59,165 bases of DNA from a virus (taxonomy: Duplodnaviria > Caudoviricetes): the IMG/VR virus record IMGVR_UViG_3300028418_000005, positions 1 to 59,165 of that record, one strand, 5' to 3'. A program made the position numbers and the translations under genes. How positions within the stretch are numbered: the first letter of the stretch is position 1; each line of letters starts with the position of its first letter. The notes under the pieces were generated by a model. It was not told where the DNA came from and did no database searches. It worked only from the letters and a program-made list of their open reading frames with translations. Positions 9,492 through 56,867 of this stretch are shown piece by piece.

Positions 9492-9501
9492 TTAAAATAA
9501 G

Positions 9502-10634: not shown

Positions 10635-10637
10635 CTC

Positions 10638-11017: not shown

Positions 11018-11029
11018 AATAAAATAAAG

Positions 11030-11113: not shown

Positions 11114-11130
11114 AATAAAAACACAATTAA

Positions 11131-11731: not shown

Positions 11732-11737
11732 AAAAAA

Positions 11738-12597: not shown

Positions 12598-12777
12598 ATG
12601 CCTATATTAAGCACTAAAAACACTATTGCCTGTGTTCGCTTGTTGAAAGGTTTGAAATCTCCTACTCCACCGGCACCAAGACCTGGAGATGATAAAATAA
12701 TTCAAGAACTAGGAGAGGAACCTATTTATATATTGCTTGAAAACAGTTCTAGTACAGATTTTATAATACAAGAATAA
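12598..12777 (+). CDS. 59-aa hypothetical protein
   Basis: MPILSTKNTIAC...PTPPAPRPG...DFIIQE; TAATG-coupled to collagen gene; read manually. Confidence 0.6.
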   Translation: MPILSTKNTIACVRLLKGLKSPTPPAPRPGDDKIIQELGEEPIYILLENSSSTDFIIQE

Positions 12778-26664: not shown

Positions 26665-29600
26665 ATGCCAGAAGCTAAAAATACATTTATCCAGTCCAAA
26701 ATGAATAAGGACATGGATGGTAGAATACTACCTAATGGTCAATATAGAGACGGTGAAAACGTTCAAATAAGTAGATCAGAAGGAGACGATGTTGGAGCAT
26801 TAGAAACAGTTTTAGGTAATGTAAAACTTACAGACTTTGGTTTAAGTGGTGAAAATTTAAAAACAATTGGAAGTTACTTTGACGATAATAGTAATCGTGT
26901 GTTTTTATTTTTAACTAATTACACAGACTCTTCACCAAATCAACTAGATAATGAAGCTATAAATGTTACAGGAGTTTTTTGTTATATAGTATCTTACAAT
27001 GTTCAAACTAAAGTATCTTCAATATTAGTAGAAGGTAGTTTTTTAAATTTTTCTCAAACTCATCATATTGTTGGGGTTAATTTACTAGAAAATCTATTGT
27101 TTTTTACAGATAATAGAAACCAACCTAGAAAAATTGATATTAACTTAGCAGGCTCTAATTACTACTATACAGAAGATCAAATATCTGTTGCTAAATACTA
27201 TCCCTATAAAGCTCCATTACTAATGAAATTTATACCAGGTAGTGGACCTGATGCTATTAAATGGGAGTCAACAATGACTGATACAACTAGTGAGTACTTG
27301 CCAATACATACAGCGGCTCAGGTAAAAAACTTTGATAGCACTGATTCCAGCGTGGTTTACCTTACTGGTTGTTACACTAATATAATGCCTAAAACACCTG
27401 GTTACGTAGGTCAACCAAATGGTTGTTTAATAACCGGGCAAGGTGTTGCAGCTGGTACTACTTTAGAAGAAGTATTAAGTATTGACACTGCAAATAATGT
27501 AACTACTATAAAAACAAGTCTACCAATAAGCGGAGGTAGTATTAAACCTATACTTTATTTTCAATTCAAAAATCCAGAATACTCCATAATATGGCCAGGT
27601 GATCCTGAGTATTTAAAAGAAAAATTTGTTAGATTTAGCTATAGATTCAAATTTGACAACAATGAATATTCTTTAATAGCTCCATTCACACAAACTGCTT
27701 TCATACCTCAACAAGATGGTTATTTCATAGGTGATAAATATAAACTTGATTCAACAGTTTTAGTAAGCAACGAACCTTCACCTCCTTCTATTTTTGGTCA
27801 AGAAGCAGAAACATTTGATTCTACTGTTGTTCCTTTTATGCAAAACAAAGTGACTAATATAGAAATATGTTTAATATCACCAACCAATGGTAATGATGAA
27901 ACTTATATAAATTGGTCTCAATTAAATGATGTTTTAAAAGTTATAGAGGTTGATATACTAATAAAAGACTCTTCTAGCAATAACGTTTATGTTGTTGAAA
28001 CACTTGGCTTATCAGAATTAAAAAACGTAAATAGCAAATATTTATTATACGATTATCAAAGTAAAAAACCATGGAGAGTTTTACCAACAGATCAAGTAAC
28101 TAGAGTAAGCGATGTTATCCCACTTAGAGCATTGGCCCAGGAAATATCTGGGAACAGAGTAATATATGCAAACTTTGTTGAAAAAAATGCATCACCAGAA
28201 AGACTAGACTATTATTTATCTGTTGGGCAAAAACCTTTTATACCTGATTATACTGACGGAGCAACAGTGGTTGATCAAGAGTTTCAGTACGTTAGAAAAG
28301 AATATCAAAACCATACTTTAAAACAAAATAGAACATATCAAGTTGGTGTAGTATTATCTGATAGGTATGGTAGAAGATCAAATGTAATTCTTTCTGAATT
28401 AGTAGACTTTCAAGAAAATCCTAGTGCAAAAAAGAACTCAACTATATTTCATAATTATGCAGATTCTAATAATTTAATAATATATGACAAGAATCAAATA
28501 CCTAACGAAGCCGCCAATACTTGGCCAGGTGATAATTTAAGTATTGTTTGGAATAACGTAATACCAGAAGAAAAAACTAATGATGGTTATCCAGGAGTAT
28601 ACTCTATTAATGATGGAACTTTAGTTAACATTTTAGTAAACCCAGGTCTTACGGCAACTTTTCCTGCTAACAGTAGTTGCACGTTTGATGTTACAAATAG
28701 TCTTTTTAGCCCCACAGCTAACGCTCAAATTAAAGCATTTAGTGATGCTGATGGTAATGTATCTGAAATTGAAATTAAATCAAGTGATAATAATTGGGTG
28801 GATGGTATGGAAGTGGTTGCTCCTTGGCAGGGTTCTGTTTTCCCGTGCCCAGGTTGGGTAGGTGAATCGTTTAGAGGTAATGCAGTTTGCCCAGCTGACA
28901 GGCCTTTAGGTTGGTATAGTTATAATATAGTAGTAAAACAAACAGAGCAAGAATATTACAATGTATATATGCCTAGCGCTTTAGCTGGCTACCCATGTAA
29001 TCAAAACATTGATGGAAAAGTTGATGATACTTTTGGCGAAACTCCTAAAATGATTTATCCTCTAGGTCAACAAAACGCAACATCACATTTAACCTTAATT
29101 GGAGACAATATAAACAAAGTGCCTAGAGATTTAAACGAAGTAGGCCCTGAGCAGAAGTCTTTTAGAAGTTCAGAAAGATTGTTTCATAGAGTAGAGGGTA
29201 TTTTACTTCAGGACAACAACGACGATATTCAATACTCTAGTCAGTCTTATTCACCTTCTTTAAAAGGAGATAAAGTTGTTACTATATCAAATATGTCAAA
29301 ATTAGATTTAGGTAATTTAATAACTAATCCTGCTTATCCTATATTACCTAATTCAATATATAAAGCAGAAACTGATCCTTTTATAGCTAGAATAAGTACG
29401 GACAAAAAGTTTGGTATAGTAGCAAATAGCAGTATTAATGGTTGTATAACAATAGAGAAAAAGGTAGATCCTGATGATGATACTAAAAATCTTATAGAAG
29501 TTAACAACACTGAGTTTGCTATTGGACCTACATTAAGCGTAAGTGAAACTAAACCAGTAGAAAGTTTATTAGATATATTTTGGGAAACATCTAGTAGTGG

Positions 29601-31926
29601 CTTGATAAGTGATTTAAATGAAAAAATTAAAAGTGTAGATAATACAGCGCCATCTGGATTTTCTCCAGTTTCTATAAGTTGGAGCGAAGGTGATCCCTAT
29701 GGTAGTTCTATATCTGGACAGTTTTCAGCAGTTGGACCAACTGGTTTAACATTAGTAGGTTCTTCAGAAATATCTTTAATTGAAGTTACTAGAGGTGACA
29801 ATGTACCCTGTATTGATCAATTTGAGTTGGTTCAATTAGGCTTTGGTGAAGTTGAACTAAAGATAGCTGCAGCTAGCCAAACTAATCCAGGTTTCTTACA
29901 TTGGCAAGATCAACTGAAAAATCAATATACATTTAAGTTTGAACTAACAAACACTACAACTAACTCTTCGAGTTTTACTTCTTTAACAGGTTATCTAAGT
30001 AACAAACCGCCAGTTGAAAGATTAGAAGCTGTTAATAGTAATGGTAATAATGTTGAAATAAACTGGGTGGACGTTAAAGAATCTATATGTGTAAGAGGTG
30101 ACCTAGATACTCAGTCTAAAAGAGAAGATGCACAAACCATGTCTTTAAAAGCTGTTCAAGGTAGTCAAAAATTTGGTATCAGATGGGATGATAACCCTTT
30201 GCTTAGCAAATCGTGGAGAAGTTATGTTGATCCTGAATCTTCTTTTTCAAATACTACTGTTAACTTTGGAGTTATAGAACCAACTACAGTTAAATATATC
30301 AATGCTGCACCATATTTTAATGAATCATCTCCATGTTGCGTAGACACAAATGAAGATAGTGGCGATATTAGACAATCAGGAATGTATGACTTTGGGTGGT
30401 TTGGTGGACCCACATTACCTGGTACTCAAGATAGTAAAAACGGTGATGGTAGATTTAGACCAACTACTTACCAACCGGGTGATAGTAGTTTAAATAGCTG
30501 CACGTATTCTCAAAAAATATATGCTCCAGATCCTTCACTATACCCTATTAATAATGATAATTACCCAGTTTCAGGTAATAGTGGCGAGTATTTGGAAATG
30601 CCTAAATATTTTAGAGGAGCTACAGGTTGGAGTTCTCAACCAGATATAAAGTTTAATAGTTCTATACTTGAAGAAACTGCATTTACCAAAGACGTACAAA
30701 CAAACACAGGTACCGCTGAGTGGGATGGTTCTTTTGCTGTTATGAACGGGGAATTTGGCAGTGAAATACTTGAAAGTTGGCCAAATATAAATGGATCACC
30801 ATCTGGTATAGGAACCGCATTAGAGATACAATGGTCTATTCCTAGAATGTACCAGGTTAGCATGATGATTCCACATGGTAATGAAATACCATTTGGAAAT
30901 ACATCAGACTTCTTTTTTGGAACAAATATCCTAGCGGACGTTATGGATTGTTATGGTGATAAAAATTTTTTAACAAAATTTCCTTTTGATCAACCTTATT
31001 ACTGGGAAATGCCTTCAAGAACATCCGCACCTCTAGTTATTCCTAAATCAACAGGTGCTAAATATTTTGATGTTCAACCAGCTGGTGAAGTTGTATTTGG
31101 TTTAATACCTGAAACTGTTATCAACTCCTTAAGTAACAGCGATAGAAATGCTATATTAAAATACATACCAAGGGGTCCAATATACTGGGATAACAGTTCT
31201 AATTCTACTAGAGCTGGTTTTCAAGGAGAAAGCCAACTAGATCCAGAAAACAAACTTGGAGAACAAGTAGTAGGTTTTAAACAAAACGCATATCAAACTA
31301 GTGATTCAGCAAATGAATATCCTCATCATTATTGGCCAGATATAAATGGTTTACTCCAGAACGATCCAGAAGGTCTTTATAGTGCTTTTAAAAGCACGCC
31401 TAGCTATGCAAACGCTCCAGACTTTATGAAAATAAGAAATGGTGCAAATACTTTTTATCAGTTTAATCTTGAACACACTGGTTATATTAGTAAGGTTGTT
31501 TGCGGTGACTCTGATCAATATGATTTTTTTCCATACTATTCTAATGCTGCAAAAACTATTGGTAACTGGGCACCTAATGCGTCTCAAGTAGCTAATGCTA
31601 TGGGTCATTTGTTTTATCTAGGTGGTATTAATAACTCTGGATACGGTAGTTCTACAAATGGTCAAGCGTTCTTTATACAACCAGAGCAAACGCAACCTGG
31701 CTATCAAAAAGCAAAAGCAAAGATACATGCTGGAACTCCAGGTGCCACTTCGCAATCATGGAATGGTCCTAATGCGTTTGGTGTTGGGTTACCAGGTGGT
31801 AGATATGTTGTTACAGTAAGAGCAACTGATGTAGGTGGTGATGGCGCTTTTGTAGAGTGGGATGTACCTGTATACTTGCCATGGTGGAGTACTAGAACAA
31901 ATACACCTCTGAGGTTGAACCCGTAA
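26665..31926 (+). CDS. tail stabilisation/nozzle-like protein, N-terminal part with long variable insertion
   Basis: KMNKDMDGRILPNGQYRDGENV, LFFTDNRNQPRKI, FVRFSYRFKF, YQVGVVLSDRYGR. Confidence 0.7.
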   Translation: MPEAKNTFIQSKMNKDMDGRILPNGQYRDGENVQISRSEGDDVGALETVLGNVKLTDFGLSGENLKTIGSYFDDNSNRVFLFLTNYTDSSPNQLDNEAINVTGVFCYIVSYNVQTKVSSILVEGSFLNFSQTHHIVGVNLLENLLFFTDNRNQPRKIDINLAGSNYYYTEDQISVAKYYPYKAPLLMKFIPGSGPDAIKWESTMTDTTSEYLPIHTAAQVKNFDSTDSSVVYLTGCYTNIMPKTPGYVGQPNGCLITGQGVAAGTTLEEVLSIDTANNVTTIKTSLPISGGSIKPILYFQFKNPEYSIIWPGDPEYLKEKFVRFSYRFKFDNNEYSLIAPFTQTAFIPQQDGYFIGDKYKLDSTVLVSNEPSPPSIFGQEAETFDSTVVPFMQNKVTNIEICLISPTNGNDETYINWSQLNDVLKVIEVDILIKDSSSNNVYVVETLGLSELKNVNSKYLLYDYQSKKPWRVLPTDQVTRVSDVIPLRALAQEISGNRVIYANFVEKNASPERLDYYLSVGQKPFIPDYTDGATVVDQEFQYVRKEYQNHTLKQNRTYQVGVVLSDRYGRRSNVILSELVDFQENPSAKKNSTIFHNYADSNNLIIYDKNQIPNEAANTWPGDNLSIVWNNVIPEEKTNDGYPGVYSINDGTLVNILVNPGLTATFPANSSCTFDVTNSLFSPTANAQIKAFSDADGNVSEIEIKSSDNNWVDGMEVVAPWQGSVFPCPGWVGESFRGNAVCPADRPLGWYSYNIVVKQTEQEYYNVYMPSALAGYPCNQNIDGKVDDTFGETPKMIYPLGQQNATSHLTLIGDNINKVPRDLNEVGPEQKSFRSSERLFHRVEGILLQDNNDDIQYSSQSYSPSLKGDKVVTISNMSKLDLGNLITNPAYPILPNSIYKAETDPFIARISTDKKFGIVANSSINGCITIEKKVDPDDDTKNLIEVNNTEFAIGPTLSVSETKPVESLLDIFWETSSSGLISDLNEKIKSVDNTAPSGFSPVSISWSEGDPYGSSISGQFSAVGPTGLTLVGSSEISLIEVTRGDNVPCIDQFELVQLGFGEVELKIAAASQTNPGFLHWQDQLKNQYTFKFELTNTTTNSSSFTSLTGYLSNKPPVERLEAVNSNGNNVEINWVDVKESICVRGDLDTQSKREDAQTMSLKAVQGSQKFGIRWDDNPLLSKSWRSYVDPESSFSNTTVNFGVIEPTTVKYINAAPYFNESSPCCVDTNEDSGDIRQSGMYDFGWFGGPTLPGTQDSKNGDGRFRPTTYQPGDSSLNSCTYSQKIYAPDPSLYPINNDNYPVSGNSGEYLEMPKYFRGATGWSSQPDIKFNSSILEETAFTKDVQTNTGTAEWDGSFAVMNGEFGSEILESWPNINGSPSGIGTALEIQWSIPRMYQVSMMIPHGNEIPFGNTSDFFFGTNILADVMDCYGDKNFLTKFPFDQPYYWEMPSRTSAPLVIPKSTGAKYFDVQPAGEVVFGLIPETVINSLSNSDRNAILKYIPRGPIYWDNSSNSTRAGFQGESQLDPENKLGEQVVGFKQNAYQTSDSANEYPHHYWPDINGLLQNDPEGLYSAFKSTPSYANAPDFMKIRNGANTFYQFNLEHTGYISKVVCGDSDQYDFFPYYSNAAKTIGNWAPNASQVANAMGHLFYLGGINNSGYGSSTNGQAFFIQPEQTQPGYQKAKAKIHAGTPGATSQSWNGPNAFGVGLPGGRYVVTVRATDVGGDGAFVEWDVPVYLPWWSTRTNTPLRLNP

Positions 31927-31955: not shown

Positions 31956-33962
31956 ATGGCTTATCAATTACCAATTAAATATTACAACGCTTTTTGGTTA
32001 AAAAAAGTAGTAGGAAGTTCTATAAAATCAACTCAAAGTGATAATGCTTCAACAGTAACAACAGAGGTTGAAGTTGGAGGAAATGAAAATTCAACTGGAA
32101 CACTCAAAGGTGGTTACATAATACCTACATGGCCTGGTTTACCTTGGGGTGATAAACTATCAAAACCTGATGTTACAAATCCAGATGTGCTAATTCCATA
32201 CCCTTGTTTTCCTTGGGGAGGAAGAGATTGGAATTCTTATAATCCTATAGGTGGATCTGGGTCTCAATTAGATTTACCCGAATGCGGCGGCAGCTTAGTT
32301 AGTGTAAACCCTACTGAAGAACAAGGTAAAGAAAGACAGTGGGCTATTGAGGAAGCTAGAATATTTGGTGGTTACAATAACACCACTGTAGATTTTGGCG
32401 TTAAAGCTTACACTGTTGAAGAAGATAATCAACAAACAATTAGAAGCTCTTCGTTAATTTATTCCGGTATATTTAATTCATTAACTGGTGTAAATAATAC
32501 AAATGTTTTTTCAACAGCAAATCCTATAACTAAAAGTGTAGATCCAGAAAATGGATCTATTCAGAAGCTTTATTCCTATGATACTAACTTAACTATATTT
32601 CAAGAAAATAAAGTTAGCAAAGCATTGATAGACAAAGACGCAATATATTCTGCTGAAGGCGTTGGAACACCTGTTTCTTCTACTAAAACGGTTATAGGAC
32701 AGATTGTTCCTTACGTTGGTGAATTTGGTATAAGCAAAAATCCCGAGTCATGGGCTCAATTTGGTTTTAGACAGTATTTTACAGATAAATATAGAAACGC
32801 TGTAATGAGATTATCTAGAGATGGTTTAACTGAAATATCCTCATATGGTATGACTGATTATTTTAGAGATAGGTTTTCCACAATAACTGACCAACCTTTA
32901 AGAAGATCTTTATCATTTAGATATTTTGACGAAGGTTTAGTTGCTGAACAATATATAAATACCATTGAAATTTTTGATAGCTCTTGTAGTGCTGATAATA
33001 TAATAATAGGTTCTTCTATTCAAATAAATAACATACAAGTACCAGGTCTTTTTGTTACTAATGTATCGACAGGTAGTGGCTCTGGCATAAGGGTTGTTTC
33101 GGTTTCACTGCCATGGAGACCAGATACATTTGGATTAACATCATACAGTGAAATAGCAAGTGATTATCCAATATCTTTTGTTACATACGTTTATGATGAG
33201 CTTTTAGGTGCTTTTGATAACCATAACAATAATTACGTGTTATCTATAAAAGATGGTGTTACGCAACCATGTTCTAGAGTTTCAGAAGGTAGAGAAGTTG
33301 GAGACAACTTCGACTATACAAATCAATTTAGAACTTACAACACGTTTAATACAGTTAACTTTGACGAAAGCATAAATGGTTGGGTTAGTTTTTACAGCTA
33401 CAATCCTACAACGATGGGTAGTTTAAAAAATGAGTTTTATACTGTTAATAATTTCGACTTATATCAACATTATCAAGGAGGCCAACTAAATCATGGTAAT
33501 TTTTATGGTACACAATATAAATCTTCAATAGAATTTATATTTAATCCTAAGCCATCTATATCTAAAAACTTCCAAACAATAGGATATGAAGGTAGTAATG
33601 GTTGGCAAGTAGAATACTTTGTGTCAGATAGTACCGCAGCGTTGTTTAATACTTTTTCAAATACTTACTACCCAGCTCAAGACAAGATAAATAGTATTCC
33701 AAGTCTTCAAGAAGGTGAATATATAGATGAAAACACCCAAATGAAGCAATACGCTGGATTTTATTTAAAAGAAAACAAATATGTAGCTAATTTAGTTAAT
33801 GCTTCACAACCATTCGATGGTGAAGTTGTATTTGGAAATTCAATGAGTGGTATAAAAGGTTTTTACACAACAGTTAAATTAAGTACAGATGATTCTACTC
33901 AGCTAGGTGGAGTTAAAGAACTATATTGCGTGTCAAGTAAATTTGTGGTGTCATCACAATAA
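31956..33962 (+). CDS. tail stabilisation/nozzle-like protein, C-terminal beta-propeller part
   Basis: GSIQKL...IFQENKVS, GEFGISKNPES, YFTDKYRNAVMRLS, GWVSFYSY. Confidence 0.7.
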   Translation: MAYQLPIKYYNAFWLKKVVGSSIKSTQSDNASTVTTEVEVGGNENSTGTLKGGYIIPTWPGLPWGDKLSKPDVTNPDVLIPYPCFPWGGRDWNSYNPIGGSGSQLDLPECGGSLVSVNPTEEQGKERQWAIEEARIFGGYNNTTVDFGVKAYTVEEDNQQTIRSSSLIYSGIFNSLTGVNNTNVFSTANPITKSVDPENGSIQKLYSYDTNLTIFQENKVSKALIDKDAIYSAEGVGTPVSSTKTVIGQIVPYVGEFGISKNPESWAQFGFRQYFTDKYRNAVMRLSRDGLTEISSYGMTDYFRDRFSTITDQPLRRSLSFRYFDEGLVAEQYINTIEIFDSSCSADNIIIGSSIQINNIQVPGLFVTNVSTGSGSGIRVVSVSLPWRPDTFGLTSYSEIASDYPISFVTYVYDELLGAFDNHNNNYVLSIKDGVTQPCSRVSEGREVGDNFDYTNQFRTYNTFNTVNFDESINGWVSFYSYNPTTMGSLKNEFYTVNNFDLYQHYQGGQLNHGNFYGTQYKSSIEFIFNPKPSISKNFQTIGYEGSNGWQVEYFVSDSTAALFNTFSNTYYPAQDKINSIPSLQEGEYIDENTQMKQYAGFYLKENKYVANLVNASQPFDGEVVFGNSMSGIKGFYTTVKLSTDDSTQLGGVKELYCVSSKFVVSSQ

Positions 33963-37632: not shown

Positions 37633-40600
37633 ATGAACGAAGAGTATTTAGAGTTATTATTTTCCGCCTACGGAAACGAAGTAGGTGACGACTACGACGC
37701 ATTTAAAACTGCTATGAGTAATGAAGACTACTCAAGAATGCTATTTGAAACTCACTCTGAAGAATTAGGTGATGATTATGCGGAGTTTAATAAAGCTGTA
37801 GGTATAAATATTGAACCTTATGTTGAACCAGAGGAAGAAGTTTCTATGTCTGGAGAGTATGGGGTAAAAGAGCAAGATGTATTTGGCAGTTCTGAGCCAA
37901 TAAAACCAGTTATTAGTAAAGATATATCTTACGATGACTTTAATATGAAAGGACAAAATTCAGCTTTTGATAATGCTGAAGAGGATTTAGAAGATAAACT
38001 TTCTGCATTATATCCTAATTTAACCTTTGATACTCCTATAATGAACGGTGGTGTGTCTAGTGACATGCTAGATGTAACTAACGAAGACGGGGAAGTTTTT
38101 AGTTGGAAAATGAACACTGATTACAACGCTGGTAAAAGAGACTCAGATGGTGAGTATACAGTTGTAGATCCAGAAGATAGAGAGCAAGAAAGTAGAGATA
38201 ACTATATAAATTTTTTAGAGTTTGCCAATAAGTCTAAATATAAAGATGGTAAGTATAAAAATCCTAATGATATAAGAACTTTAGGCCCAGATTATATGGT
38301 TAAAAACGACCAAGGTCAAGATATAGAGATGCAAGTTACCCCTGGTTTGACTCAAAAAGCAATATCTATAATGAAATCAAACCCAGATGTAACATCATTA
38401 GATGAAGCTATAGATATAGCTGTTGACACTGAGTTTGGACAAATGAATATAGCTTGGCAAGGGTCTGTTCAAAATAAAAAAGCTAAAGAAAACTTTGAGT
38501 TTAAAAACAAAGTTAAATCATTAGCTTCTGATAATAATTTTAATCCTAACATAAGTGGTAGCGCAACTGGACTAGAAGCTAGTTCTGAATTAAATAATAC
38601 TATTGAAGTATTAGAAGAATTAGGTATGCCTAAAGAAGTTGTTGCTTCTGCTAGAGCTGATGCTGAGAATAATATAGGTTTTTTAGATTACCTAGCTAGT
38701 GGAGGATCTTCTAACCCTATGTCTTTTAACGCTGGAGACCCTACATTTACTAGACCTGCTTCTGTAGCTGCTAGAGGAGTTGTTAATTCAAACCAAGAAA
38801 TAAGAAACAACGTTAGAGCCTGGTTAGATGGTTCACAAACATGGGGAGAAAACACTAATGGACCGCTCGTTTTAAAAGCTTATAATGAGTTTGTTGATCA
38901 AAAAAGCAAAGAAGAAGCAGATAACAATATCAAACAAAAAGTAATTGAAGATGGTATAAACCAGGAACAGGTAATAAAAAGACAAGAACAATTATTAAAT
39001 GCCGAAGGTAATACGTTAAGTAAAGAGCAAGCTCTAGTACAAGCAGAGAAAGATGTAATAGCTTTAACTGTTCAAGATATTAAAACAAAAAAAGCTAAAG
39101 AAGATGGTGATAGAGTTTTAAAAGCTGAACTACCTTATTATGAGGGTAAGAGTAAAAGCAAAATAGAAGCATTACAATCTGAATTAGCTGAAATAAACAA
39201 ATTAGAAGAAGGGCAAGAAAAAGCAATAAAATATAAAGAATATTTAAATAAAGTTAGAGATTTCTTAGATGATGATGAGGTTAATTTATTAAAGCAGGGT
39301 GATAAGTTTGTAAGAAAAGACAGACAAGAACAAGCAGATAATTTAAATTCAATTGTTAAAAGTGGTGTTAAAGATTTACTTTTAGAAGCTCCGGACAAGC
39401 TAGATGAAAAGTTGTTAGATACAGACACTGAATTGTTAAACCTAGCTAAAGAAATAAAAAGAAAAGGTTTAAGTGAGACTTTAAATGAGGGCAGTGCTTT
39501 ACAACTAGTAGGAGCTTTAGGTCAAGAGCTTGTAGGAGCTGAAGGTAGTGCCTTTGAAGATTTTAGAAAAATAGAAAAATGGGTTGAAACTGGTGAAATG
39601 CCGGATTTATTAACACCATTGCCGGTATCAACTACAGATAGTTATTTAACTAGCCCTTATGGTGATGCTAGTGGTTCAGATCCTTTGGTAAAAAAATATA
39701 ATGATTTACTTCAATATAGATCTACATTACTTTTAGCTCAAAGTTTAAACGCGGATCCAACTTCTTTTGGTAAAACAGAAAGTGGTGTTGGTAGGTTTTT
39801 AGAAGGCGTAGTAGAAGCTACTCCTGAAGCAGTAGGCATGAATAGTGGTTTAACTAATGATAAACAGCGTGAATTAGGTTTTGACATCTTAGAAGACGTC
39901 TATGGTATTAAAAAGACGGATAAAGACAAGGCTAATCTATATCAAGTAGAGCACGATCTTTGGAAAAGTTCTGGTAAAATGATACCTGGCTTAATGAGAA
40001 TGGGAGCTGAGATATACTTAACAACTGTAGCAACTGGTGGCATGGGATTTGGTCCTGCTGTTTTAAGATCTGCTACATTTAGAACTCTACTAAGAGGTGG
40101 AGTATCAAGAGGTATGGCTGATAAAATTGCTGCTTACGGAACTGCTGTTATGACAGAATATGTAGGTTTACAAGGTAGTAATGCAATGGAAAGAAGTTTA
40201 GATTTTGGACCAGGTATAGAAAATCCAGGATTGTTTGCTCTAACAGCTAGTGCTATAAGATTAACAGGTGCACAAGCTTCTAGCAAGTTTAATGATGCCA
40301 TTATAGATACTTACAGAACAGGTTCTAATGCACAGAGAAATGCTTTAGAATATTTTTATGCTTTTCCTACTACGGCGTCTACAGAAGCTGGAGCTTTAAA
40401 ATATACTAATAGTTTAGTTGATAGATCAGTCAAGTCTTTAAGTAGAACTACAATGGCTGCTGGTGGTAAGATAACAGGAGCTGCTGGTGGTGCTTTAACC
40501 ATAAGCACAGCTGATAATGTTGGTGCAGTATTAGCAGGTGATAAAACTGTTGCTCAAGCCTTGAACGATGTTACCAATCCTGATCATTTAATGGAGTTAG

Positions 40601-43600
40601 GCGGAGCTTTATTGTTTTTAGGTATGTCTAGACCAGACAAGTATAGTAAACAGACTATAGAAAGATTTAGAACAGAGGTAGATTTAATAAGAGGGAACAA
40701 TCCACAGTGGAATAAACTTAGAAGATCTCTAGGTATGAAAACTGTTTCTGATAAAAGCGAAGAGTACGAACAAGGTGAAGAAGCTTTTTCTGAAAGAGTT
40801 GATTCAGCTTTAGAACTTAAAAAAGAGGAAATAAATAATAGTAACAAATCTGATGCTCAGAAAAATCAAGAAATATCTGCATTAGAATTTAACGCTAATA
40901 GATTAAAATTAAAAATACCTTTAGATGTTTTAGCTAAAGATTTGGCAAACCCAGCAGTCATGGGTAGCTATAAAGAATTAGAGCAAGCTGCTTATGCTAT
41001 ATCTACAGGAGGTTTTAATGCTAAGAACTTGTCTGTTATAGAAGCTGCATCTTTTACTAGTGACGGAACGTCTGGTGTTAAAATGTTAGAGTTTTATGGA
41101 TTAGATGCTGCTCAAGCCCAACAAGTTGTAGATTTTAGTTACTCAATGAGAGATGTAGCTAAAAGACATTTTCAAGGAGATTTAACTAATGCTAATTTTC
41201 AAAAATACATAGACGAATCTATAACAGAAAGTAGATTAGAATCTTCTAAGGAAAAAATAAAGAAAAATTATGAAGCTAAACGCATAGATAAAGCTGATTA
41301 TGAATCTCAAACAGAAGAAATAGATGCTCAACTAGATATTAACTTGAAATCTAAAAAGCGATTACTTGAAGCTGCTAAAGTAGAAAGAGCAGGCAAAGAG
41401 TTAGAAAAAATTGAAGAATACAAGAAAGCTGGTTTTGAAATTAAAGAAATGAACGATGCTGAAATGAAGAAATTCATGGAAGATAATGGTGGTAATTTTA
41501 GTTCAACTGGTTTTGGTTATCAAGGTGTTGTTAATGGTAAGTCTATAGCTTTAATTAACACGGATGCTACTGCTAGAGAAAATGTTGGTGGAACAGAGGT
41601 ACATGAAATATGGCATCATCCATTTGAAAGAAGACTAGGTGACGAAGCTATGGCTAAGAAAATAGAGTCTTTAATGAAAGATGAAAATCTAACAGAAGAG
41701 CAAGCATCAGCCAAAGTGGACAGCGAAGCTAGGGAATACTTAGATGGTTTTCAAAATGCTTTAGAAAACAGAGGTATATTAGACTTAGTTGACAAAGAAG
41801 TATTTTCAAGACCAGGAATACTAAAAGAGCTTGTAGAAATAGACAAAGACGGTAACGTAAGCCTTAAAGATATGTCTAATGTTTCTATACGTGAAATGAA
41901 AGAGTTTGTTAATGAGTTTATACAGTTAAATGAAAATGGTGCTTTTAATAATTTAAAATCTGAAGGACAAAGAAAAGCTGCTGAAAAACAAAACACTAAA
42001 GATCTTACAGAAAAAGAGTACAACGACGCGTTAAATGATCCTATTAAATTTGTAGACTTTGTCTTGAGTGGTAAGTATAATAGTAAAAATATTAATGATT
42101 TTTTAAAGCGTGAAGCAGATGCTTTAGGTATGGAAACTGAAACAACGGGTTTACAAGCATCGGAAAAAATAATATCTAAAGGTAGTAAAGACGCTTCTGA
42201 AGTAAACAAAAAAATTGAAACTAAAATTATTGATCAAGGTAGTGGTGGTGTAAGAGTTAGGGATATAAAAGATTCTAAGTTTAAAAAACAAATTACAGAT
42301 GAATTAACTAAAGCTAATAACACCATGATAGAGGTTAGAGCTAGAAGAGCAGCTAATAATCCTAGAATACAAGCTTTAGAACCTTCTAAAAGAGTTTCTG
42401 AAAAAGAATTTCAATCTGCTTTTAATGCTGAGTTTGTTGAAGCTTTAGGTCAGTACAAGCCAGTTGTTGATGGTAAAAGAATACCATTTGGAGCATATAT
42501 GAATCAACGTTTGACTCAACGATTTAAACAAGCTTTAGACAAAGCTAAGCAAGGTCAATTTGAAGGTCCTGAAGTTAGATTAGAACAACCCACGAAAGAA
42601 GGTGAAAGAGGTTTTGATACTGAATCAAAAGATCTTAACCCTGAAGAAGCTATGATAGCTAAAGAGTCAGGTAAAACTGAAACTACTAAAGAAACTAAAA
42701 CAATAAATCCATTAGAAGCTCCAAATGTAAAACCTAAAGCAAAAGAAATTGAAGATGCTATAGACTTTACAGAGGCAGATGCTGTAGGTATGCGTACAGG
42801 TGGTTTTAAAGGAGTAGGTGAAACTTACGGAGGTAAAGCTGCTTCAATAGCTTTTGGAGTTCCTGAAGCTAAAATAATGGATCCAAAGAAAAATCTTACT
42901 TATGCTAAGAAGATTAAAGATGGTATTCCAGAACCATCTGAAGCTGGTAATATTCAACAAGCTTTTACTAATAAAAGTAAAGTAGAAACATTTATTAAAA
43001 ACCTACCTGAGACAAATGTTAGTGACATGCAGACTAATATTGGTTTAGAAAAACTAAATGTATCAAGAGATGTATATGGTTATGGAACTGGTATTAATAA
43101 TAGAGTATTAAAAACTTTTTATAATAAAACTGGTAAAAGATCTAAAGGTTTGACTAGTCAACCTGCTATATGGGAATTAAAACCAGAGTTTAAAGGTAAA
43201 ATATCTAATGAGACTATAGCTAAAGTACAAAAAGAATTAGGTATTACAGAAGCTGGTCAATTAAATAAGTATGATAGAAACATTGGTCAATTACTTAAAG
43301 GAGTTGCTAAGCTAGAAGGTTATCAAATAGCTAATACAGTTGTAAGAAAAAAGATAGAGGGTATGGATATTAAGTCCGCAACCCCTACAAAACAATTATT
43401 AGCAGATTTAAAGGCTGGAGCAAATAGATTTCAGGCGTCAGCAAAAAAGAAAAGCATTCAAGAAAAAAGTGATGAAAGACTAGATAAAAAAGCTCCAGGC
43501 ACAAAATCAATTCAAAGTCAAATTGGTCAAAAAACAGTTGTTCAAAGAGTTACTAAAGCTATGCTTGGGGACGTGGCTGATGCAGGAGGAAACTTTTTCC

Positions 43601-46600
43601 TTAAACAAGGAGGTTTCATGGGTTCGTCAGTGTGGAACAATTCTGGTGCATTGTTTGAAGCTGCTTTAAGAAAAGGTTTTCCTTTTGTAGGAAATTATTT
43701 AAATAAAATAGAGTCGCTCACTAAAGACTTCATTGTTAAAGAAGAAATGACAGAAGCTAAAGCTAGAAAAAAAGCTGAAGAGGTAATGTCTTTAACTAAA
43801 GAAGCTTTAGATTTAGGTTTAACTTTAGAAACTTCTTCATTGCAGAAAGCGATGAAAGAACAAATAAAAAGTAATCCAGAAAAATACAACAAGTATAGTG
43901 ACAAACAATTAAAGCAATTAGATAAAGCTATTAATGCTCAAGACTATAAAAAGTTAGAGAAAAACTTAACAGAATTATCTGATATAAAAGCAGGTAAAGA
44001 CTTGTTAATAGATATGTTTAAAGAAATATATGATAAAGATTCTAAAAACTTAGATGTATTATCTTACATGATGTATCATGCTAATTCTAACTCACATCCT
44101 ATGAGAAACTTTGCTACTGTATTAGGCAAGGAGTTAGGTTTAAAAGGTAGAGGACATGAAGAACACACTCTTCCTTTTGGTGAATTTAGTCAACTAATGT
44201 TAGATGCTATAACAGGGAAAAATGTAGATCTACCTGGTTTTAAAAAATGGATTAATGAAAATTACTTTCAAGAAGTAACTAGTAAAGGAGATCCTAATAA
44301 TGGAATATTTAAAACTAAAGAAATATTAGATCACCCTAGAAGATCAACTGATAAATTAGGCAATGATCTAGAATCTTGGGACTCCGCTAATCAACTTCAT
44401 CCCGAACTTAAAATACAACTTGCTGAAGCATTAGCTGGTAAAAGAAAATTTAAAGATGTAATATCGGCAGATATAAGAAAATATAATGAGTATTCGTCAG
44501 AAAGAGGTTATGTAAATCCTAATAAAATGAATAGACTAGGTGTTACTGACGCTAAAAGATACAACGTTGAGGTTCCTAAAAAGTTACAAAACAATTCTAA
44601 CATAATAGAAATACAAAATCATTTAATACACCAGCAGCTTATAGGCAAGATGAGTGCTAAAGAAGCTAGAGAAATGATGGATTTAGCTATTAAAGATGCA
44701 CCTGCTAGGTTAAAAGCTACAAGAGCTGATTATAAAATGTTAAAACAATCTCCTGTACTTAACTTAAGTGAAAAAATGTCTACTAATGATTTGGTTAGAA
44801 AAGCTAGAATTATAGACAAGGCACTGGCTAATGCTAGAAAAACGAACAAAAAACCTAAAAAAATTAGAGTATTTGATTTTGATGATACTGTTGGTGTTAG
44901 CAAAAATAAAGTATTTGCATTAAGAGAAGGTGTAAAAAAAGTATTAAATGCGGAGGAGTTTGCTAAAGAAGGTTTAGATCTTATAGATGAGGGTTGGGAA
45001 ATGGACTTTTCTGATTTCAATAAAGTAACTGAAGGTGGTAAAGGTCCATTATTTGACTTGATGAAGACAATGAAAGAAGCTAAAGGTGAAAGAGATATGT
45101 TCATACTAACTGCTAGAGCTCCTGAAGCTGCACCTGCAATACACATGTTTTTAAAGGAAATGGGTATTGATATACCTATAGAAAACGTTGTTGGACTAGG
45201 TAAATCTACAGGCGAAGCTAAAGCTAATTGGCTAGTTGGTAAAGCTGCAGAAGGATATAATGATTTTTATTTTGCTGACGATGCACCTCAAAATGTTAAA
45301 GCAGTTCGTGACGCTTTAGAAGTTCTTGATATTAAATCTCAAGTTCAACAAGCTAGAATGAATGCTAGTGAAAAGCTAAGTGAGGACTTTAATAAAATAC
45401 TAGAAGAAAAAACAGGTATAGGTGCGGAGAAAGTGTTTTCTGATATTAAAGCTGAAATAAGAGGTAATAAAGCTAGAAAGCAAAAATTCTTTATACCACC
45501 ATCTGCCGAGGATTTCTTAGGTTTATTATACGCTACATTACCAAAAGGTAAAAAAGGTGAAGCTGCATTAGACTTTTATCAAAAGAATTTATTTGATCCT
45601 TACACTAGAGCTACAGATAATTTATCAAGAGATAGAGTGAATTTAATGGATGATTTTAAAGCTCTTAAAAAAGAATTAGATGTTCCAGCAGATCTTAGAA
45701 AAGAAACTAAATCAGGTTTTACTAATGAACAAGCTGTAAGAGTTTATATGTGGGGAAAAGAAGGTAAGGATGTTCCTGGATTATCTAAGTCTGATTTTAA
45801 AGAACTAAATGACATTATTGAAGGTGATGCTAAATTAAAATCTTTTGCTGATCAAATATTTGAAATAACAAAAGGAGATGGATACAATACCCCGGGTAAG
45901 GACTGGGCTGTAGGTACTATAACAACAGATCTTATAGAGGTTCTTAACAAAACTAAAAGAGCTAAGTATCTAGAACCTTGGAAACAGAATGCTGACATTA
46001 TATTTAGTAAGGAGAACTTAAATAAGCTTGAGGCAGCTTATGGCAAAAAATATAGAGAAGCTATGGAAAACACGCTTTCTCGTATGAAATCTGGTAGTAA
46101 TAGAACATCAGGTGGTAATAGATTAAGTAATCAAGTTTTGGATTATATAAATAACTCAACTGGTGTCACCATGTTCCTTAACACTAGATCTGCGCTACTA
46201 CAAACAATATCAGCTGCCAACTTTGTAAACTGGAGTTTTAATAATCCGCTAATGGCTGGTAAAGCTTTTGCTAATCAACCTCAATACTGGAAAGACTTTG
46301 TTAAGCTAATGAACTCTGATTATTTAAAAGACAGGCGTAATGGTCTTAAACTTAATATAAATGAATCTGAAATAGCTGATGCTGCTAAAACGTCAAAGAA
46401 TAAAGCTAAAGCTGCTTTAAATTATATATTAGAAAAAGGTTACTTACCTACTAAATATGCAGATAGTTTTGCTATAGCATCTGGTGGAGCTATGTTTTAT
46501 AGAAATAGAATAAATGATCTTGTTAAAAAAGGTTTTACTATTAGTGAAGCAGAAACTCAAGCAATGAAAGAGTTTAGACAAGTGTCAGAAAAATCTCAAC

Positions 46601-47496
46601 AGTCTTCTGATCCTAGTAAAATATCTTCTCAACAGTCTGGTGATTTAGGTAGGATAATACTACAGTATGCTAATACACCTATGCAGTATGCTCGTATACA
46701 AAAAAGAGCTGTACAAGATATAGTGAACGGAAGAGGAGATATGAAAGCTAATGTTAGTAAAATAATATACTATGGATTTTTACAAAACTTAATATTCAAT
46801 GCTTTACAACAAGGAGCATTTGCTTTAGGATTTGGAGATGACTTTAGTGATAAAGATAAAGATGATAAGTTAGTTAATACTGTTAACGGTATGTTAGATT
46901 CTTCTCTTAGAGGTTTAGGATTAGGCGGTGTATCTCTTCAAGTTCTTAAAAATTTAGGTTTAGATGTTTATAAAAGATCAAAAAGAGATAGACCAGAATA
47001 TGTAGATTCTTACTATAAGCTGCTTGAATTTTCACCTGCTATAAAAAGTAAGCTATCAAGGTTTAAGTCTGCAGCCTACCCGTTTGATAGTAAAAAACGT
47101 AGAGCAGAAGTTTTTGATAAAGGTTTTAGCTTGGACAATCCTGCTTATGAATCGATGGCTAAGGTTGTAACAGCAGTTACTAATGTGCCTTTAGATAGAA
47201 TGTATTTGAAAATTGATAATTTGAAAAATGCTACAGCAGATGAGACTGAAACTTGGATGGGAGTTGCTAACTTTCTAGGTTGGCCAACATGGCAGCTAGA
47301 ACCTAAAGAATATAATAAAGCTAATAATGTTAGTGTTAAATCAACAGTTCCAAAAGTTAAAACAAAAAAGGAAAAAATTGATAAATTAAAATCTATGACC
47401 TATATACAGCTAAGGAATAAAGCTAAAAAAGAAGGTAAAGAGTATTCAGGTAAGAATAAAAAAGAATTGATAGATATACTAAAGAAAAATATGTAA
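37633..47496 (+). CDS. giant polyvalent virion/ejection protein (zincin HExxH, sigma-like segment, HAD domain, C-terminal Rho-N/HeH-like motif)
   Basis: 3287 aa; HEIWH at 41602; IPFGAYMNQRL at 42481; VFDFDDT/LTAR/FADDAPQN HAD motifs at about 44870-45295; MTYIQLRNKAK...KNKKELIDIL at the end. Confidence 0.75.
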   Translation: MNEEYLELLFSAYGNEVGDDYDAFKTAMSNEDYSRMLFETHSEELGDDYAEFNKAVGINIEPYVEPEEEVSMSGEYGVKEQDVFGSSEPIKPVISKDISYDDFNMKGQNSAFDNAEEDLEDKLSALYPNLTFDTPIMNGGVSSDMLDVTNEDGEVFSWKMNTDYNAGKRDSDGEYTVVDPEDREQESRDNYINFLEFANKSKYKDGKYKNPNDIRTLGPDYMVKNDQGQDIEMQVTPGLTQKAISIMKSNPDVTSLDEAIDIAVDTEFGQMNIAWQGSVQNKKAKENFEFKNKVKSLASDNNFNPNISGSATGLEASSELNNTIEVLEELGMPKEVVASARADAENNIGFLDYLASGGSSNPMSFNAGDPTFTRPASVAARGVVNSNQEIRNNVRAWLDGSQTWGENTNGPLVLKAYNEFVDQKSKEEADNNIKQKVIEDGINQEQVIKRQEQLLNAEGNTLSKEQALVQAEKDVIALTVQDIKTKKAKEDGDRVLKAELPYYEGKSKSKIEALQSELAEINKLEEGQEKAIKYKEYLNKVRDFLDDDEVNLLKQGDKFVRKDRQEQADNLNSIVKSGVKDLLLEAPDKLDEKLLDTDTELLNLAKEIKRKGLSETLNEGSALQLVGALGQELVGAEGSAFEDFRKIEKWVETGEMPDLLTPLPVSTTDSYLTSPYGDASGSDPLVKKYNDLLQYRSTLLLAQSLNADPTSFGKTESGVGRFLEGVVEATPEAVGMNSGLTNDKQRELGFDILEDVYGIKKTDKDKANLYQVEHDLWKSSGKMIPGLMRMGAEIYLTTVATGGMGFGPAVLRSATFRTLLRGGVSRGMADKIAAYGTAVMTEYVGLQGSNAMERSLDFGPGIENPGLFALTASAIRLTGAQASSKFNDAIIDTYRTGSNAQRNALEYFYAFPTTASTEAGALKYTNSLVDRSVKSLSRTTMAAGGKITGAAGGALTISTADNVGAVLAGDKTVAQALNDVTNPDHLMELGGALLFLGMSRPDKYSKQTIERFRTEVDLIRGNNPQWNKLRRSLGMKTVSDKSEEYEQGEEAFSERVDSALELKKEEINNSNKSDAQKNQEISALEFNANRLKLKIPLDVLAKDLANPAVMGSYKELEQAAYAISTGGFNAKNLSVIEAASFTSDGTSGVKMLEFYGLDAAQAQQVVDFSYSMRDVAKRHFQGDLTNANFQKYIDESITESRLESSKEKIKKNYEAKRIDKADYESQTEEIDAQLDINLKSKKRLLEAAKVERAGKELEKIEEYKKAGFEIKEMNDAEMKKFMEDNGGNFSSTGFGYQGVVNGKSIALINTDATARENVGGTEVHEIWHHPFERRLGDEAMAKKIESLMKDENLTEEQASAKVDSEAREYLDGFQNALENRGILDLVDKEVFSRPGILKELVEIDKDGNVSLKDMSNVSIREMKEFVNEFIQLNENGAFNNLKSEGQRKAAEKQNTKDLTEKEYNDALNDPIKFVDFVLSGKYNSKNINDFLKREADALGMETETTGLQASEKIISKGSKDASEVNKKIETKIIDQGSGGVRVRDIKDSKFKKQITDELTKANNTMIEVRARRAANNPRIQALEPSKRVSEKEFQSAFNAEFVEALGQYKPVVDGKRIPFGAYMNQRLTQRFKQALDKAKQGQFEGPEVRLEQPTKEGERGFDTESKDLNPEEAMIAKESGKTETTKETKTINPLEAPNVKPKAKEIEDAIDFTEADAVGMRTGGFKGVGETYGGKAASIAFGVPEAKIMDPKKNLTYAKKIKDGIPEPSEAGNIQQAFTNKSKVETFIKNLPETNVSDMQTNIGLEKLNVSRDVYGYGTGINNRVLKTFYNKTGKRSKGLTSQPAIWELKPEFKGKISNETIAKVQKELGITEAGQLNKYDRNIGQLLKGVAKLEGYQIANTVVRKKIEGMDIKSATPTKQLLADLKAGANRFQASAKKKSIQEKSDERLDKKAPGTKSIQSQIGQKTVVQRVTKAMLGDVADAGGNFFLKQGGFMGSSVWNNSGALFEAALRKGFPFVGNYLNKIESLTKDFIVKEEMTEAKARKKAEEVMSLTKEALDLGLTLETSSLQKAMKEQIKSNPEKYNKYSDKQLKQLDKAINAQDYKKLEKNLTELSDIKAGKDLLIDMFKEIYDKDSKNLDVLSYMMYHANSNSHPMRNFATVLGKELGLKGRGHEEHTLPFGEFSQLMLDAITGKNVDLPGFKKWINENYFQEVTSKGDPNNGIFKTKEILDHPRRSTDKLGNDLESWDSANQLHPELKIQLAEALAGKRKFKDVISADIRKYNEYSSERGYVNPNKMNRLGVTDAKRYNVEVPKKLQNNSNIIEIQNHLIHQQLIGKMSAKEAREMMDLAIKDAPARLKATRADYKMLKQSPVLNLSEKMSTNDLVRKARIIDKALANARKTNKKPKKIRVFDFDDTVGVSKNKVFALREGVKKVLNAEEFAKEGLDLIDEGWEMDFSDFNKVTEGGKGPLFDLMKTMKEAKGERDMFILTARAPEAAPAIHMFLKEMGIDIPIENVVGLGKSTGEAKANWLVGKAAEGYNDFYFADDAPQNVKAVRDALEVLDIKSQVQQARMNASEKLSEDFNKILEEKTGIGAEKVFSDIKAEIRGNKARKQKFFIPPSAEDFLGLLYATLPKGKKGEAALDFYQKNLFDPYTRATDNLSRDRVNLMDDFKALKKELDVPADLRKETKSGFTNEQAVRVYMWGKEGKDVPGLSKSDFKELNDIIEGDAKLKSFADQIFEITKGDGYNTPGKDWAVGTITTDLIEVLNKTKRAKYLEPWKQNADIIFSKENLNKLEAAYGKKYREAMENTLSRMKSGSNRTSGGNRLSNQVLDYINNSTGVTMFLNTRSALLQTISAANFVNWSFNNPLMAGKAFANQPQYWKDFVKLMNSDYLKDRRNGLKLNINESEIADAAKTSKNKAKAALNYILEKGYLPTKYADSFAIASGGAMFYRNRINDLVKKGFTISEAETQAMKEFRQVSEKSQQSSDPSKISSQQSGDLGRIILQYANTPMQYARIQKRAVQDIVNGRGDMKANVSKIIYYGFLQNLIFNALQQGAFALGFGDDFSDKDKDDKLVNTVNGMLDSSLRGLGLGGVSLQVLKNLGLDVYKRSKRDRPEYVDSYYKLLEFSPAIKSKLSRFKSAAYPFDSKKRRAEVFDKGFSLDNPAYESMAKVVTAVTNVPLDRMYLKIDNLKNATADETETWMGVANFLGWPTWQLEPKEYNKANNVSVKSTVPKVKTKKEKIDKLKSMTYIQLRNKAKKEGKEYSGKNKKELIDILKKNM

Positions 47497-56108: not shown

Positions 56109-56867
56109 TTACAGGAAGTCAACCACTTGCGAGTGATCTACATTCTCTATAAGTTTGTCTACAGCTTGCTTTTTTAACTCTGAAACCCGCACATAAGAGG
56201 ATATACCTTTTATATCTAGTTTTTCTGCTATTTGTTTAGCTGACCACTTAGGACCATCAAGTCCATAACTTTTACTAAGAGTAAAAACTTCGTTCCACTC
56301 TAGGTGTTTTGTTAATAAACTCATAATATAGGTGTTTAACATTTCTTCGTTATAAGGATCTGACTGATCAGGTATTTGATAAATCATATCTTCGTCGTCA
56401 TATGGTTTTTTGTCTATACTTAAAAACATAGAATTAAAAAACATAGCAACCATTTTTTTATCTTTACCTCCATCTTTGCGTATTTCATTTAGCTTGTGTT
56501 CTGGTATCCTCATTTGAGCTCTGTTTTTGTCTATTTCTCTTCTTATACCTCCACGTATGCGTTTAGCAAAAAAAGATTTTAATGATTTCAACTTGTCTTC
56601 TGATTCTAATAACTTATCTCTATCAAGCTTACCTACAGCTTTACAAAGTTGCATGCTACCTTCTTGTAATAAATCCATGATAGACATAACACCTGAAGCT
56701 TCTTGAGCTGTTGAAAATTTTCTAGCTACATTTTCCACTAAAGGTAAAAATATTAATTTAAGCTCTTCATCAGTGTAATCTACATAGTCTCTTACAGGTA
56801 TTATAGCTAAAGCTCTTTTAATATCTTCTTTATACCTTATATAGTTTTTTACATTATATTTTTTCAT
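56109..56867 (-). CDS. sigma-70 family RNA polymerase sigma factor
   Basis: LVENVARKF, MDLLQEG..LCKAV.K.D, KRIRGGIRREI, MRIPEH, region-4-like AKQIAEKL...VRVSELKKQAVDKL. Confidence 0.85.
   Translation of the reverse strand: MKKYNVKNYIRYKEDIKRALAIIPVRDYVDYTDEELKLIFLPLVENVARKFSTAQEASGVMSIMDLLQEGSMQLCKAVGKLDRDKLLESEDKLKSLKSFFAKRIRGGIRREIDKNRAQMRIPEHKLNEIRKDGGKDKKMVAMFFNSMFLSIDKKPYDDEDMIYQIPDQSDPYNEEMLNTYIMSLLTKHLEWNEVFTLSKSYGLDGPKWSAKQIAEKLDIKGISSYVRVSELKKQAVDKLIENVDHSQVVDFL

Follow-up and report, generated by a model that had tools for sequence, protein, structure and literature searches.

A candidate self-processing polyvalent virion polyprotein with lineage-specific junction motifs in an uncultured marine podophage

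Polyvalent proteins of phages and conjugative elements carry zincin-like metallopeptidase domains, and the main text of the paper that treats them predicts their autoprocessing (Iyer, Burroughs, Anand, de Souza and Aravind 2017; PMC5512222). According to the same text, DdrB of phage P1, a large virion protein with a zincin-like protease, is processed before packaging, and the N4 virion RNA polymerase gp50 carries a zincin-like protease and is packaged unprocessed. The main text of a preprint on phage phi24B describes gp47, a virion protein of 2811 amino acids with LPD5, LPD1 and LPD38 domains and a MuF-C metallopeptidase, which was found in virions by mass spectrometry, is not seen in the cryo-electron microscopy map and has been put forward as an ejection protein (bioRxiv 10.64898/2026.04.10.717836). 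Crassviruses, as described in the main text of Bayfield et al. (2023; PMC10172136), store cargo proteins in capsid and tail and eject them ahead of the DNA. The present analysis concerns a giant open reading frame (ORF) at positions 37633-47496 on the plus strand of IMG/VR virus record IMGVR_UViG_3300028418_000005, all of which (59,165 bases, linear; CheckV completeness 92%; GC content ~33%) is referred to below as the window. The ORF encodes 3287 amino acids plus stop (~370 kDa), with a putative metallopeptidase followed by four similar hexapeptides at the borders of its modules. On balance we consider it probable that the product is a polyvalent polyprotein of the virion, an ejection or cargo protein that processes itself, from an uncultured marine podophage. 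Proteins of this kind are already known: the main text of PMC5512222 describes polyvalent phage proteins that have a zincin as their hub and predicts that they process themselves. What is new is an explicit junction motif with lineage-specific versions, apparently selected at the protein level and marking the borders of exchangeable cassettes, and a sigma-region-2-like cargo module; the family itself, large, uncultured and previously undescribed, is also new.

The giant ORF resembles the polyvalent proteins, as presented in the main text of PMC5512222, in being a giant multidomain phage protein with an HExxH...E metallopeptidase hub and mixed enzymatic and DNA- or RNA polymerase-related modules, and in that HExxxH protease variants occur in both. 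It differs in that Pfam MPTase-PolyVal and LPD models do not match it, in its domain set (sigma-2-like, HAD and conserved C-terminal domains) and in its explicit, concertedly changing junction motif; PMC5512222 proposes processing without a cleavage motif, its main text containing 'cleavage site' in the reference list only and 'linker' nowhere. N4 gp50 is an RNA polymerase, whereas Pfam detected no RNA polymerase domain in the giant ORF, which has a sigma-region-2-like domain instead. Crassvirus cargo, as laid out in the main text of PMC10172136, shares with it a genome place after the tail and muzzle genes (the 668-residue neighbour in the window has a crAss_MUZ_C domain), but is made up of several distinct gene products, RNA polymerase subunits among them, whereas the giant ORF would be one polypeptide split after its synthesis; 'cleav' appears nowhere in that main text. 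Like the giant ORF product, phi24B gp47 is a giant podophage protein with a metallopeptidase; unlike it, gp47 comes with no processing or junction motif in the passages of the preprint that were compared, where the protease is proposed to attack peptidoglycan (10.64898/2026.04.10.717836). These two proteins are likened here by description.

RNA-virus polyproteins contain an in-cis protease and short consensus cleavage sites, with protease and sites changing together between lineages. The giant protein would be like them in having a protease inside the chain, a short motif at each product border and a joint change of the two between lineages, and unlike them in belonging to a double-stranded DNA phage, in employing a metalloprotease and in comprising delivered cargo instead of replication machinery. 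The prohead proteases gp21 of T4 and gp175 of phiKZ process internal head proteins, cutting after glutamate in short motifs. Here too the short motifs lie in internal or ejected head proteins, and the S-E-K of the window's motif would fit a cut after glutamate; the window, however, has no recognised prohead protease and no motif in its capsid and portal proteins, and the glutamate is lost in the lineages with ASKDL, KFSKS or QAKDI motifs. No description of such junction motifs was found in the main texts compared, and the supplement of PMC5512222 could list related architectures.

The family to which the giant ORF belongs comprises at least 1152 proteins of ~1800-5750 amino acids according to a word-indexed search. 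Scanned with an alignment built from 32 family proteins, IMG/VR gave 593 matching stretches, 533 of them encoding a relative; 79 IMG/VR loci were kept, one of which is a fragment and 78 of which are full-length, with a giant ORF of 2331-3864 amino acids. No split-gene form was seen, each of the 78 full-length loci having a single giant ORF, although shorter proteins were not searched for. Blastn and tblastn comparison of residues 1201-2956 with 50,697 phage records gave no match, hence no cultured phage record among them.

The metallopeptidase module, gluzincin-like in character, occupies residues ~1262-1500 (41416-42132, plus strand) and was modelled by AlphaFold 2 (AF2) with a predicted local distance difference test score (pLDDT) of 82.8 and a predicted template modelling score of 0.79. 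Its HEIWH (residues 1324-1328; 41602-41616, plus strand), which occurs once in the ORF and is its HExxH metal-binding and catalytic motif, was placed by the sequence-only reading ahead of the four hexapeptides, and all five elements were found where that reading had put them, in one ORF of 3287 amino acids. E1424 (41902-41904, plus strand), 100 residues past HExxH in a later helix, is the candidate third zinc ligand. In its own numbering the model has HExxH in helices 71-76 and 78-85, preceded by strands 20-23, 48-50 and 56-59, and E1424 in helix 169-184. Across 74 homologous modules with ~15% identity no column is invariant except the four of H1324, E1325, H1328 and E1424, so that the zincin-type module proposed from the sequence appears real. 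A census of 195 distinct relatives, one of them a fragment, found exactly one HExxH in 184 and HExxxH at the same place in seven, which together amount to 191 of the 194 full-length proteins; in three relatives (L005, at residues ~940-955, P0096 and P0110) the homologous position reads EELFH, with the first histidine ligand replaced by glutamate. The module is taken as a working gluzincin-type peptidase in nearly all members, since HExxH...E stays invariant while the rest of the module drifts to 15% identity. An exhaustive VIA-align search with the model filled most of its first ten rows with lethal factor-type and other zincins, all at Z 4-5.2 (the N-domains of Certhrax and lethal factor, the lethal-factor catalytic domain, PPEP-2, PPEP-3 and PprI), with YbeY at ranks 9 and 14; a profile search of the PDB with the module returned nothing significant (snapalysin, E 0.29; IrrE, E 1.8).

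The four junction motifs are LQASEK (site 1; residues 1507-1512; 42151-42168), FQASAK (site 2; 1933-1938; 43429-43446), LNLSEK (site 3; 2376-2381; 44758-44775) and MNASEK (site 4; 2576-2581; 45358-45375), all on the plus strand. Their setting was read from the zincin model and from a second AF2 model of residues 1441-2640, built on a 63-sequence alignment with a mean pLDDT of 68. Sites 1, 2 and 4 fall in stretches with pLDDT below 50: residues 1502-1516 (the last 15 of the zincin model) and 1498-1510 (the second model) for site 1, 1927-1959 for site 2 and 2568-2583 for site 4; AF2 renders these three sites as low-confidence helix starts. Site 3 stands in a 12-residue loop between helices (pLDDT ~72-76) that joins a long helix to the first helix of the HAD module. 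By these models all four motifs lie in linkers and some linkers are without a motif, since other low-confidence stretches, above all residues 1646-1701 (42568-42735, plus strand; pLDDT below 50) inside the module between sites 1 and 2, lack one. The domain parsing that the sequence-only reading had suggested as a check therefore finds the motifs in low-confidence linkers or an inter-helix loop and not inside folded domains.

In this protein the motif has the form hydrophobic-N/Q-x-S-E/A-K, and more generally hydrophobic-x(1-2)-small(S/A)-x-x-hydrophobic; constant are the small residue (serine, or alanine in some lineages), a hydrophobic residue two to three places before it and a hydrophobic residue three places after it. 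A strict expression written after the fact, [LIMFV][NQS][ATLMSK]S[EA][KR], matches the giant ORF alone among the 38 translated ORFs of at least 100 amino acids in the window, none of the other 37, capsid and portal included, having a copy. Its four matches compare with 0.10 expected from shuffles, and a chance origin of the four motifs is unlikely. Look-alikes elsewhere in the protein were set aside as junction sites: EQASAK at residue 1356 and SE[KR] at 1053, 1589 and 2289 are not conserved, and RQVSEK at 2982 sits inside the universally conserved core.

Conservation in homologues bears out the proposal that the motifs mark domain borders, with the addition that they switch in concert between lineages. 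The strict expression has 183 matches in 120 homologous proteins, against 11.6 expected from shuffles, with typically three to four copies per protein at fixed spacing. Downstream of HExxH lie 188 of 190 strict copies, which leaves only two upstream of the protease, where a junction motif was considered and rejected; the first site after HExxH comes at a median of 163 residues (range 127-196, n=64 relatives). Site 2 reads LQASEK, FQASEK or LSMSEK in relatives, and S2579 of site 4 is invariant in 32 full-length relatives. Relatives without the strict pattern carry a different short motif at the equivalent junctions, for example ASKDL in three to six copies per protein, and further lineage flavours (QAKDI/FAKNI, KFSKS/KFSKG, SxxNRS, NRSS and others) likewise recur at several junctions of a protein. 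Three or more NxSEK-type copies are found in 49 of the 195 relatives and three or more ASKDL-type copies in 35 of them, while none has two or more of both.

The concerted change was measured in junction windows taken from alignment columns, the motif itself having no part in their definition. For each of the six pairs of junctions, the windows resemble one another more within proteins than across them (0 of 2000 permutations each, 45-50 representatives), as do sites 3 and 4 in a separate anchor-based test (0 of 5000 permutations, 97 representatives), whereas in ten non-junction control comparisons the observed value was reached in 35 to 987 of 1000 permutations. Sequence relatedness inflates such permutation counts, yet the controls carry the same bias and show no effect. 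These window tests were used in place of a self-similarity scan, which at its very strict threshold found extra sites in only 85 of 189 proteins. Two other roles for the motif were considered and rejected: internal translation starts, since many motifs begin with F, Y or K, and phosphorylation of the motif serine by or for the HAD domain, since whole lineages have alanine there (QAKDI, FAKNI).

The form of the motif also goes with that of the protease. An NxSE/NK motif at site 4 pairs with HExx[WFY]H in 52 of 61 proteins and ASKDL at site 4 with HExx[TAS]H in 41 of 50, and there are no cross cases between the two classes. Independent pairs that differ in site-4 class were drawn from the C-terminal domain (FastTree, 187 rows), and their zincin class changes in the same sense in 10.8 of 14 pairs with none opposite for ASKDL (median p 0.001), and in 6.4 of nine pairs with 0.1 opposite for NxSEK (median p 0.03).

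Codon usage suggests that the likeness of the motifs is maintained in the protein. The motif serine of sites 1-4 is encoded in the window by TCG, TCA, AGT and AGT, and in four further loci that span two motif classes (L013, L014, L024 and L006) sites 1 and 2 use TCN and site 3, often with site 4, uses AGY. Because the serine codon families differ between sites, the likeness is, to judge by the codons, selected in the protein and not homogenised by gene conversion.

The junctions coincide with the borders of exchangeable cassettes. When the protein was compared with 118 relatives, 64 of 215 internal boundaries of BLAST segments fell within 10 residues of the four motifs (30% against 3.2% expected); 22 homology segments start within 10 residues of site 3 and 19 end within 10 residues of site 4. 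Downstream modules begin at sites 1 and 3 and upstream modules finish at sites 2 and 4; breakpoints cluster as well in the motif-free linker at residues 1646-1701. A mobile cassette of ~170 residues follows the HAD domain in one set of relatives and precedes it in another, with a copy of the motif on each side. It was observed at junction 4 or 3 in L024 (10607-11098) and also in L037, L039, L008, L067 and L069; it has no Pfam hit, and its C-terminal ~25 residues repeat the end of the HAD module.

If the protein is a self-processing polyprotein, the chain would be synthesised in full and packaged uncut by way of a single targeting region, and the C-terminal domain is a candidate for directing incorporation, by analogy only. 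The junction motif would be a processing site read by one co-evolving factor, most likely the in-cis zincin, which may first cut its own C-terminal border, fixed ~163-183 residues past HExxH, and next the remaining junctions. Cutting would release four or five separate products, predicted to be an N-terminal product of ~1506 residues that carries the protease, a sigma-like protein of ~426 residues, a product of ~443 residues from the module B region, a HAD phosphatase of ~200 residues and a C-terminal domain of ~706 residues. The scheme allows cutting in the capsid as well as in the host.

Several observations weigh against self-processing and temper the probability given to it. We infer cleavage, the protease responsible and the timing; packaging and ejection of the giant protein with the DNA are likewise proposed from gene order and size only, the gene being large and standing at the end of the structural block. 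The Pfam MPTase-PolyVal and LPD models are absent both from ten segments searched at E up to 1 and from the whole protein. The structural matches of the zincin module are weak, with Z about 5, below the trust level of VIA itself and rated inconclusive by the tool, and Foldseek found nothing at E <0.5 for the model in the PDB or BFVD. The three EELFH relatives (L005, P0096 and P0110) keep KFSKS-type sites despite the changed ligand. Motif types are mixed in the mosaics P0040, P0059 and P0102, the first two of which combine HEFTH and an NxSE(R/K)-like or degenerate site 3 with ASKDL at site 4, and in many lineages junction 3 reads VLNVxxNMS, unlike their other sites. The association between zincin and site can in part be explained by physical linkage in recombination blocks, because site 4 recombines together with the upstream block; a tree of the HAD domain (155 rows) points in the same direction as that of the C-terminal domain but is underpowered (5-6 pairs, p 0.06-0.13). 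To these comes the precedent of N4 gp50, packaged unprocessed with its zincin-like protease.

The N4 precedent, as given in the main text of PMC5512222, speaks for a protein that stays intact, with the motifs acting as non-proteolytic junction elements, either as docking sites for a common partner, which could be the capsid interior, the portal or a chaperone such as the phage GroEL, or as hinges or unfolding signals that set the order of packaging or ejection. A small residue flanked by two hydrophobic anchors could equally serve as a linear binding motif of short length, a GroEL-like chaperonin is among the proteins of the phage, and sites 1, 2 and 4 are modelled by AF2 as helix starts of low confidence. 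We nevertheless consider an intact protein unlikely: HExxH...E kept invariant amid drift to 15% identity argues for a working protease, the motifs stand at the borders of exchangeable cassettes and inserted cassettes bring their own flanking copies, as release sites need, and the motif is not a generic linker feature, since the linker at residues 1646-1701 lacks it. The motifs might instead be cleavage sites cut by another protease, an unrecognised one of the phage or one of the host, while the in-cis zincin acts on host targets or the envelope. This would accommodate the motif copies retained in the three EELFH relatives and the mosaics with mixed motif types, and effector roles for such proteases are considered in the main text of PMC5512222, as is a cell-wall role for the metallopeptidase of the 2811-residue phi24B protein in that of the preprint (10.64898/2026.04.10.717836). 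However, searches with Pfam and PHROGs reveal no further protease in the window, and a general head-maturation protease should leave sites in capsid and portal, whereas the strict motif occurs in no other ORF of the window; a host protease would leave unexplained why motif switches track the zincin class, and the fixed distance from HExxH to site 1 fits cleavage in cis. A separate protease thus seems to us rather improbable.

A reading without any role in the protein, in which the motifs act at the DNA level, as recombination linkers that gene conversion keeps alike and that promote shuffling, draws on the clustering of homology breakpoints at the motifs, on the cassettes inserted there and on the Erf-type and exonuclease recombination genes of the phage. 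It is very improbable, given that the serine codon changes from TCN (sites 1 and 2) to AGY (site 3, often also site 4), that other codons differ too and that copies within a gene are not more alike in DNA than their amino acids require, the opposite being seen; direct DNA repeats in an essential gene would, moreover, favour deletions.

One polypeptide holds several unrelated functional domains, namely zincin, sigma-2-like and HAD phosphatase, plus at least three unassigned modules. The sequence-only reading had the first two motifs bracketing a sigma-like segment, which stands in part: a module of 420 residues (module A) is bracketed, and only its first ~130 residues, the first third, are sigma-like. 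This sigma-70 region 1.2/2-like helical domain spans residues ~1513-1640 (42169-42552, plus strand). With residues 1501-1640, VIA matched ~20 chains of sigma-A, sigma-S and sigma-B region 1.2/2 at Z 7.9-8.9, values to be read with the caution that helical domains at Z < about 13 may share merely a common arrangement; a fragment of RpoS aligned over 95 of 96 residues with a root-mean-square deviation of 3.0. A PDB profile search with 60 relatives gave a borderline result, a sigma factor first at E 0.012 and another at E 0.058, and Pfam Sigma70_r2 appears below threshold in two of 63 relatives and is absent from the window's own segment. No relation to the window's own sigma-like ORF was detectable with hhalign. 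After the motif-free linker, the second half of module A (residues 1702-1926; 42736-43410, plus strand) is an alpha/beta domain in the AF2 model; its PDB profile search was empty, and Rad52-like Pfam matches were below threshold and occurred in relatives only. Module B (residues 1939-2375, 437 amino acids; 43447-44757, plus strand) is modelled as mostly helical with a small beta part.

That the last two motifs bracket a HAD domain of 200 residues is well borne out. The HAD-superfamily phosphatase module covers residues 2382-2575 (44776-45357, plus strand), with DFDDT at residues 2415-2419 (44875-44889), and is matched by phrog_415 (E 1.7e-5), the only PHROG to match the giant protein. D2415, D2417, T2419, T2493, K2530, D2549 and D2550 of the HAD motifs are invariant in 32 full-length relatives, and VIA places residues 2405-2563 at Z 8-9.3 to many HAD phosphatases; no Pfam HAD model matches the module. 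In two relatives a P-loop kinase recognised by the AAA_33 and Zeta_toxin models is inserted in the HAD domain between junctions 3 and 4 (P0057, residues 2190-2330; P0051, residues 2191-2331), which would yield a Pnkp-like kinase-phosphatase unit.

The two ends of the protein differ in conservation. Coverage by the 118 relatives defines a universal core at residues ~2380-3200, made up of the HAD and C-terminal domains, with variability rising toward the N terminus. The N-terminal region (residues 1-1250; 37633-41382, plus strand) varies among relatives, has low homology coverage before residue ~640 and contains no junction motif; Pfam found nothing there, and Atlas leads to LPD22, LPD14 and P22 gp16 clusters were weak. 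The C-terminal domain (residues 2582-3287, 706 amino acids; 45376-47493, plus strand) is universally conserved, being covered by 117 of 118 relatives at ~60-90% identity. Pfam matches there (eIF-5a OB, HeH and SAP) are all below threshold, and the nearest Atlas clusters are unnamed and viral. An eIF-5a-type OB-fold model appears below threshold in 18 of 63 relatives at residues ~2666-2713 (45620-45780, plus strand). The tail, residues ~3250-3287 (47380-47493, plus strand), is SAP/HeH-like, with SAP at E 0.11 in the window and YqbF_HeH below threshold in six of 63 relatives. Pfam searches of the whole protein and of the ten segments returned no family, and a PDB profile search with the whole protein nothing significant. 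Atlas leads to LPD clusters are weak (LPD39 on 28% of the members of one cluster, plus LPD38, LPD22 and LPD14). No stretch of 19 residues exceeds a hydropathy of 1.3, which indicates that the giant protein has no classical membrane helix.

In the window the giant ORF is the final gene of a structural block on the plus strand that runs from a GroEL-like chaperonin, a collagen-like tail fibre, large terminase, portal and structural proteins to ORFs of 1753, 668, 838 and 3287 amino acids, and replication genes follow downstream of it on the opposite (reverse) strand. The chaperonin (7030-8586, plus strand; phrog_5725, E 8e-133) could help fold the giant protein. The collagen-like tail fibre protein (12777-13898, plus strand) matches 49 PHROG families, mostly tail or tail-fibre, and a gene for 386 amino acids between portal and capsid has no Pfam or PHROG match. 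The 668-residue protein (31956-33962, plus strand) contains the Pfam crassvirus muzzle C-terminal domain (crAss_MUZ_C, E 2.9e-9), and phrog_14478 is split across it and the 1753-residue protein upstream (26665-31926, plus strand); the phage tail therefore appears to have parts in common with crassviruses. The separate sigma-like gene (56109-56867, minus strand) matches phrog_351 and, below threshold, Pfam Sigma70_r2 (E 9e-5).

The terminase is nearest to that of the uncultured podovirus MW202828 (64% identity) and is also near those of Flavobacterium, Cellulophaga, Tenacibaculum and Maribacter phages, so that a Bacteroidota host is likely from terminase relatedness. At the same genome position MW202828 (L001) encodes a protein of 3859 amino acids (741-12320, minus strand) with HExxH twice, at residues 1615 and 2500. 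It has no detectable similarity to the giant ORF, and simple word counts show no obvious repeated motif in it; the giant-protein design may recur in MW202828 without sequence homology.

The candidate sites, the candidate protease and the natural specificity variants (NxSEK, ASKDL, KFSKS and others) of this abundant family make the autoprocessing prediction of 2017 directly testable. We tentatively suggest, as a possibility that remains rather doubtful, that the family is a plug-in effector array, in which a packaging-competent chain with a protease holds cassettes bounded by a co-evolving cleavage 'grammar', so that cargo could be inserted at any junction and still be released; the pieces might include a sigma-like factor that, once injected, turns the RNA polymerase of the host toward phage DNA as soon as infection begins, and a Pnkp-like phosphatase (coupled to a kinase in some relatives) which repairs or blocks RNA-based defence of the host. 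If self-processing is true, it would explain how one packaging signal loads several effectors in a fixed ratio and why cassettes are swapped at junctions, and the injected sigma-like factor would be a route to early takeover of transcription without a virion RNA polymerase.

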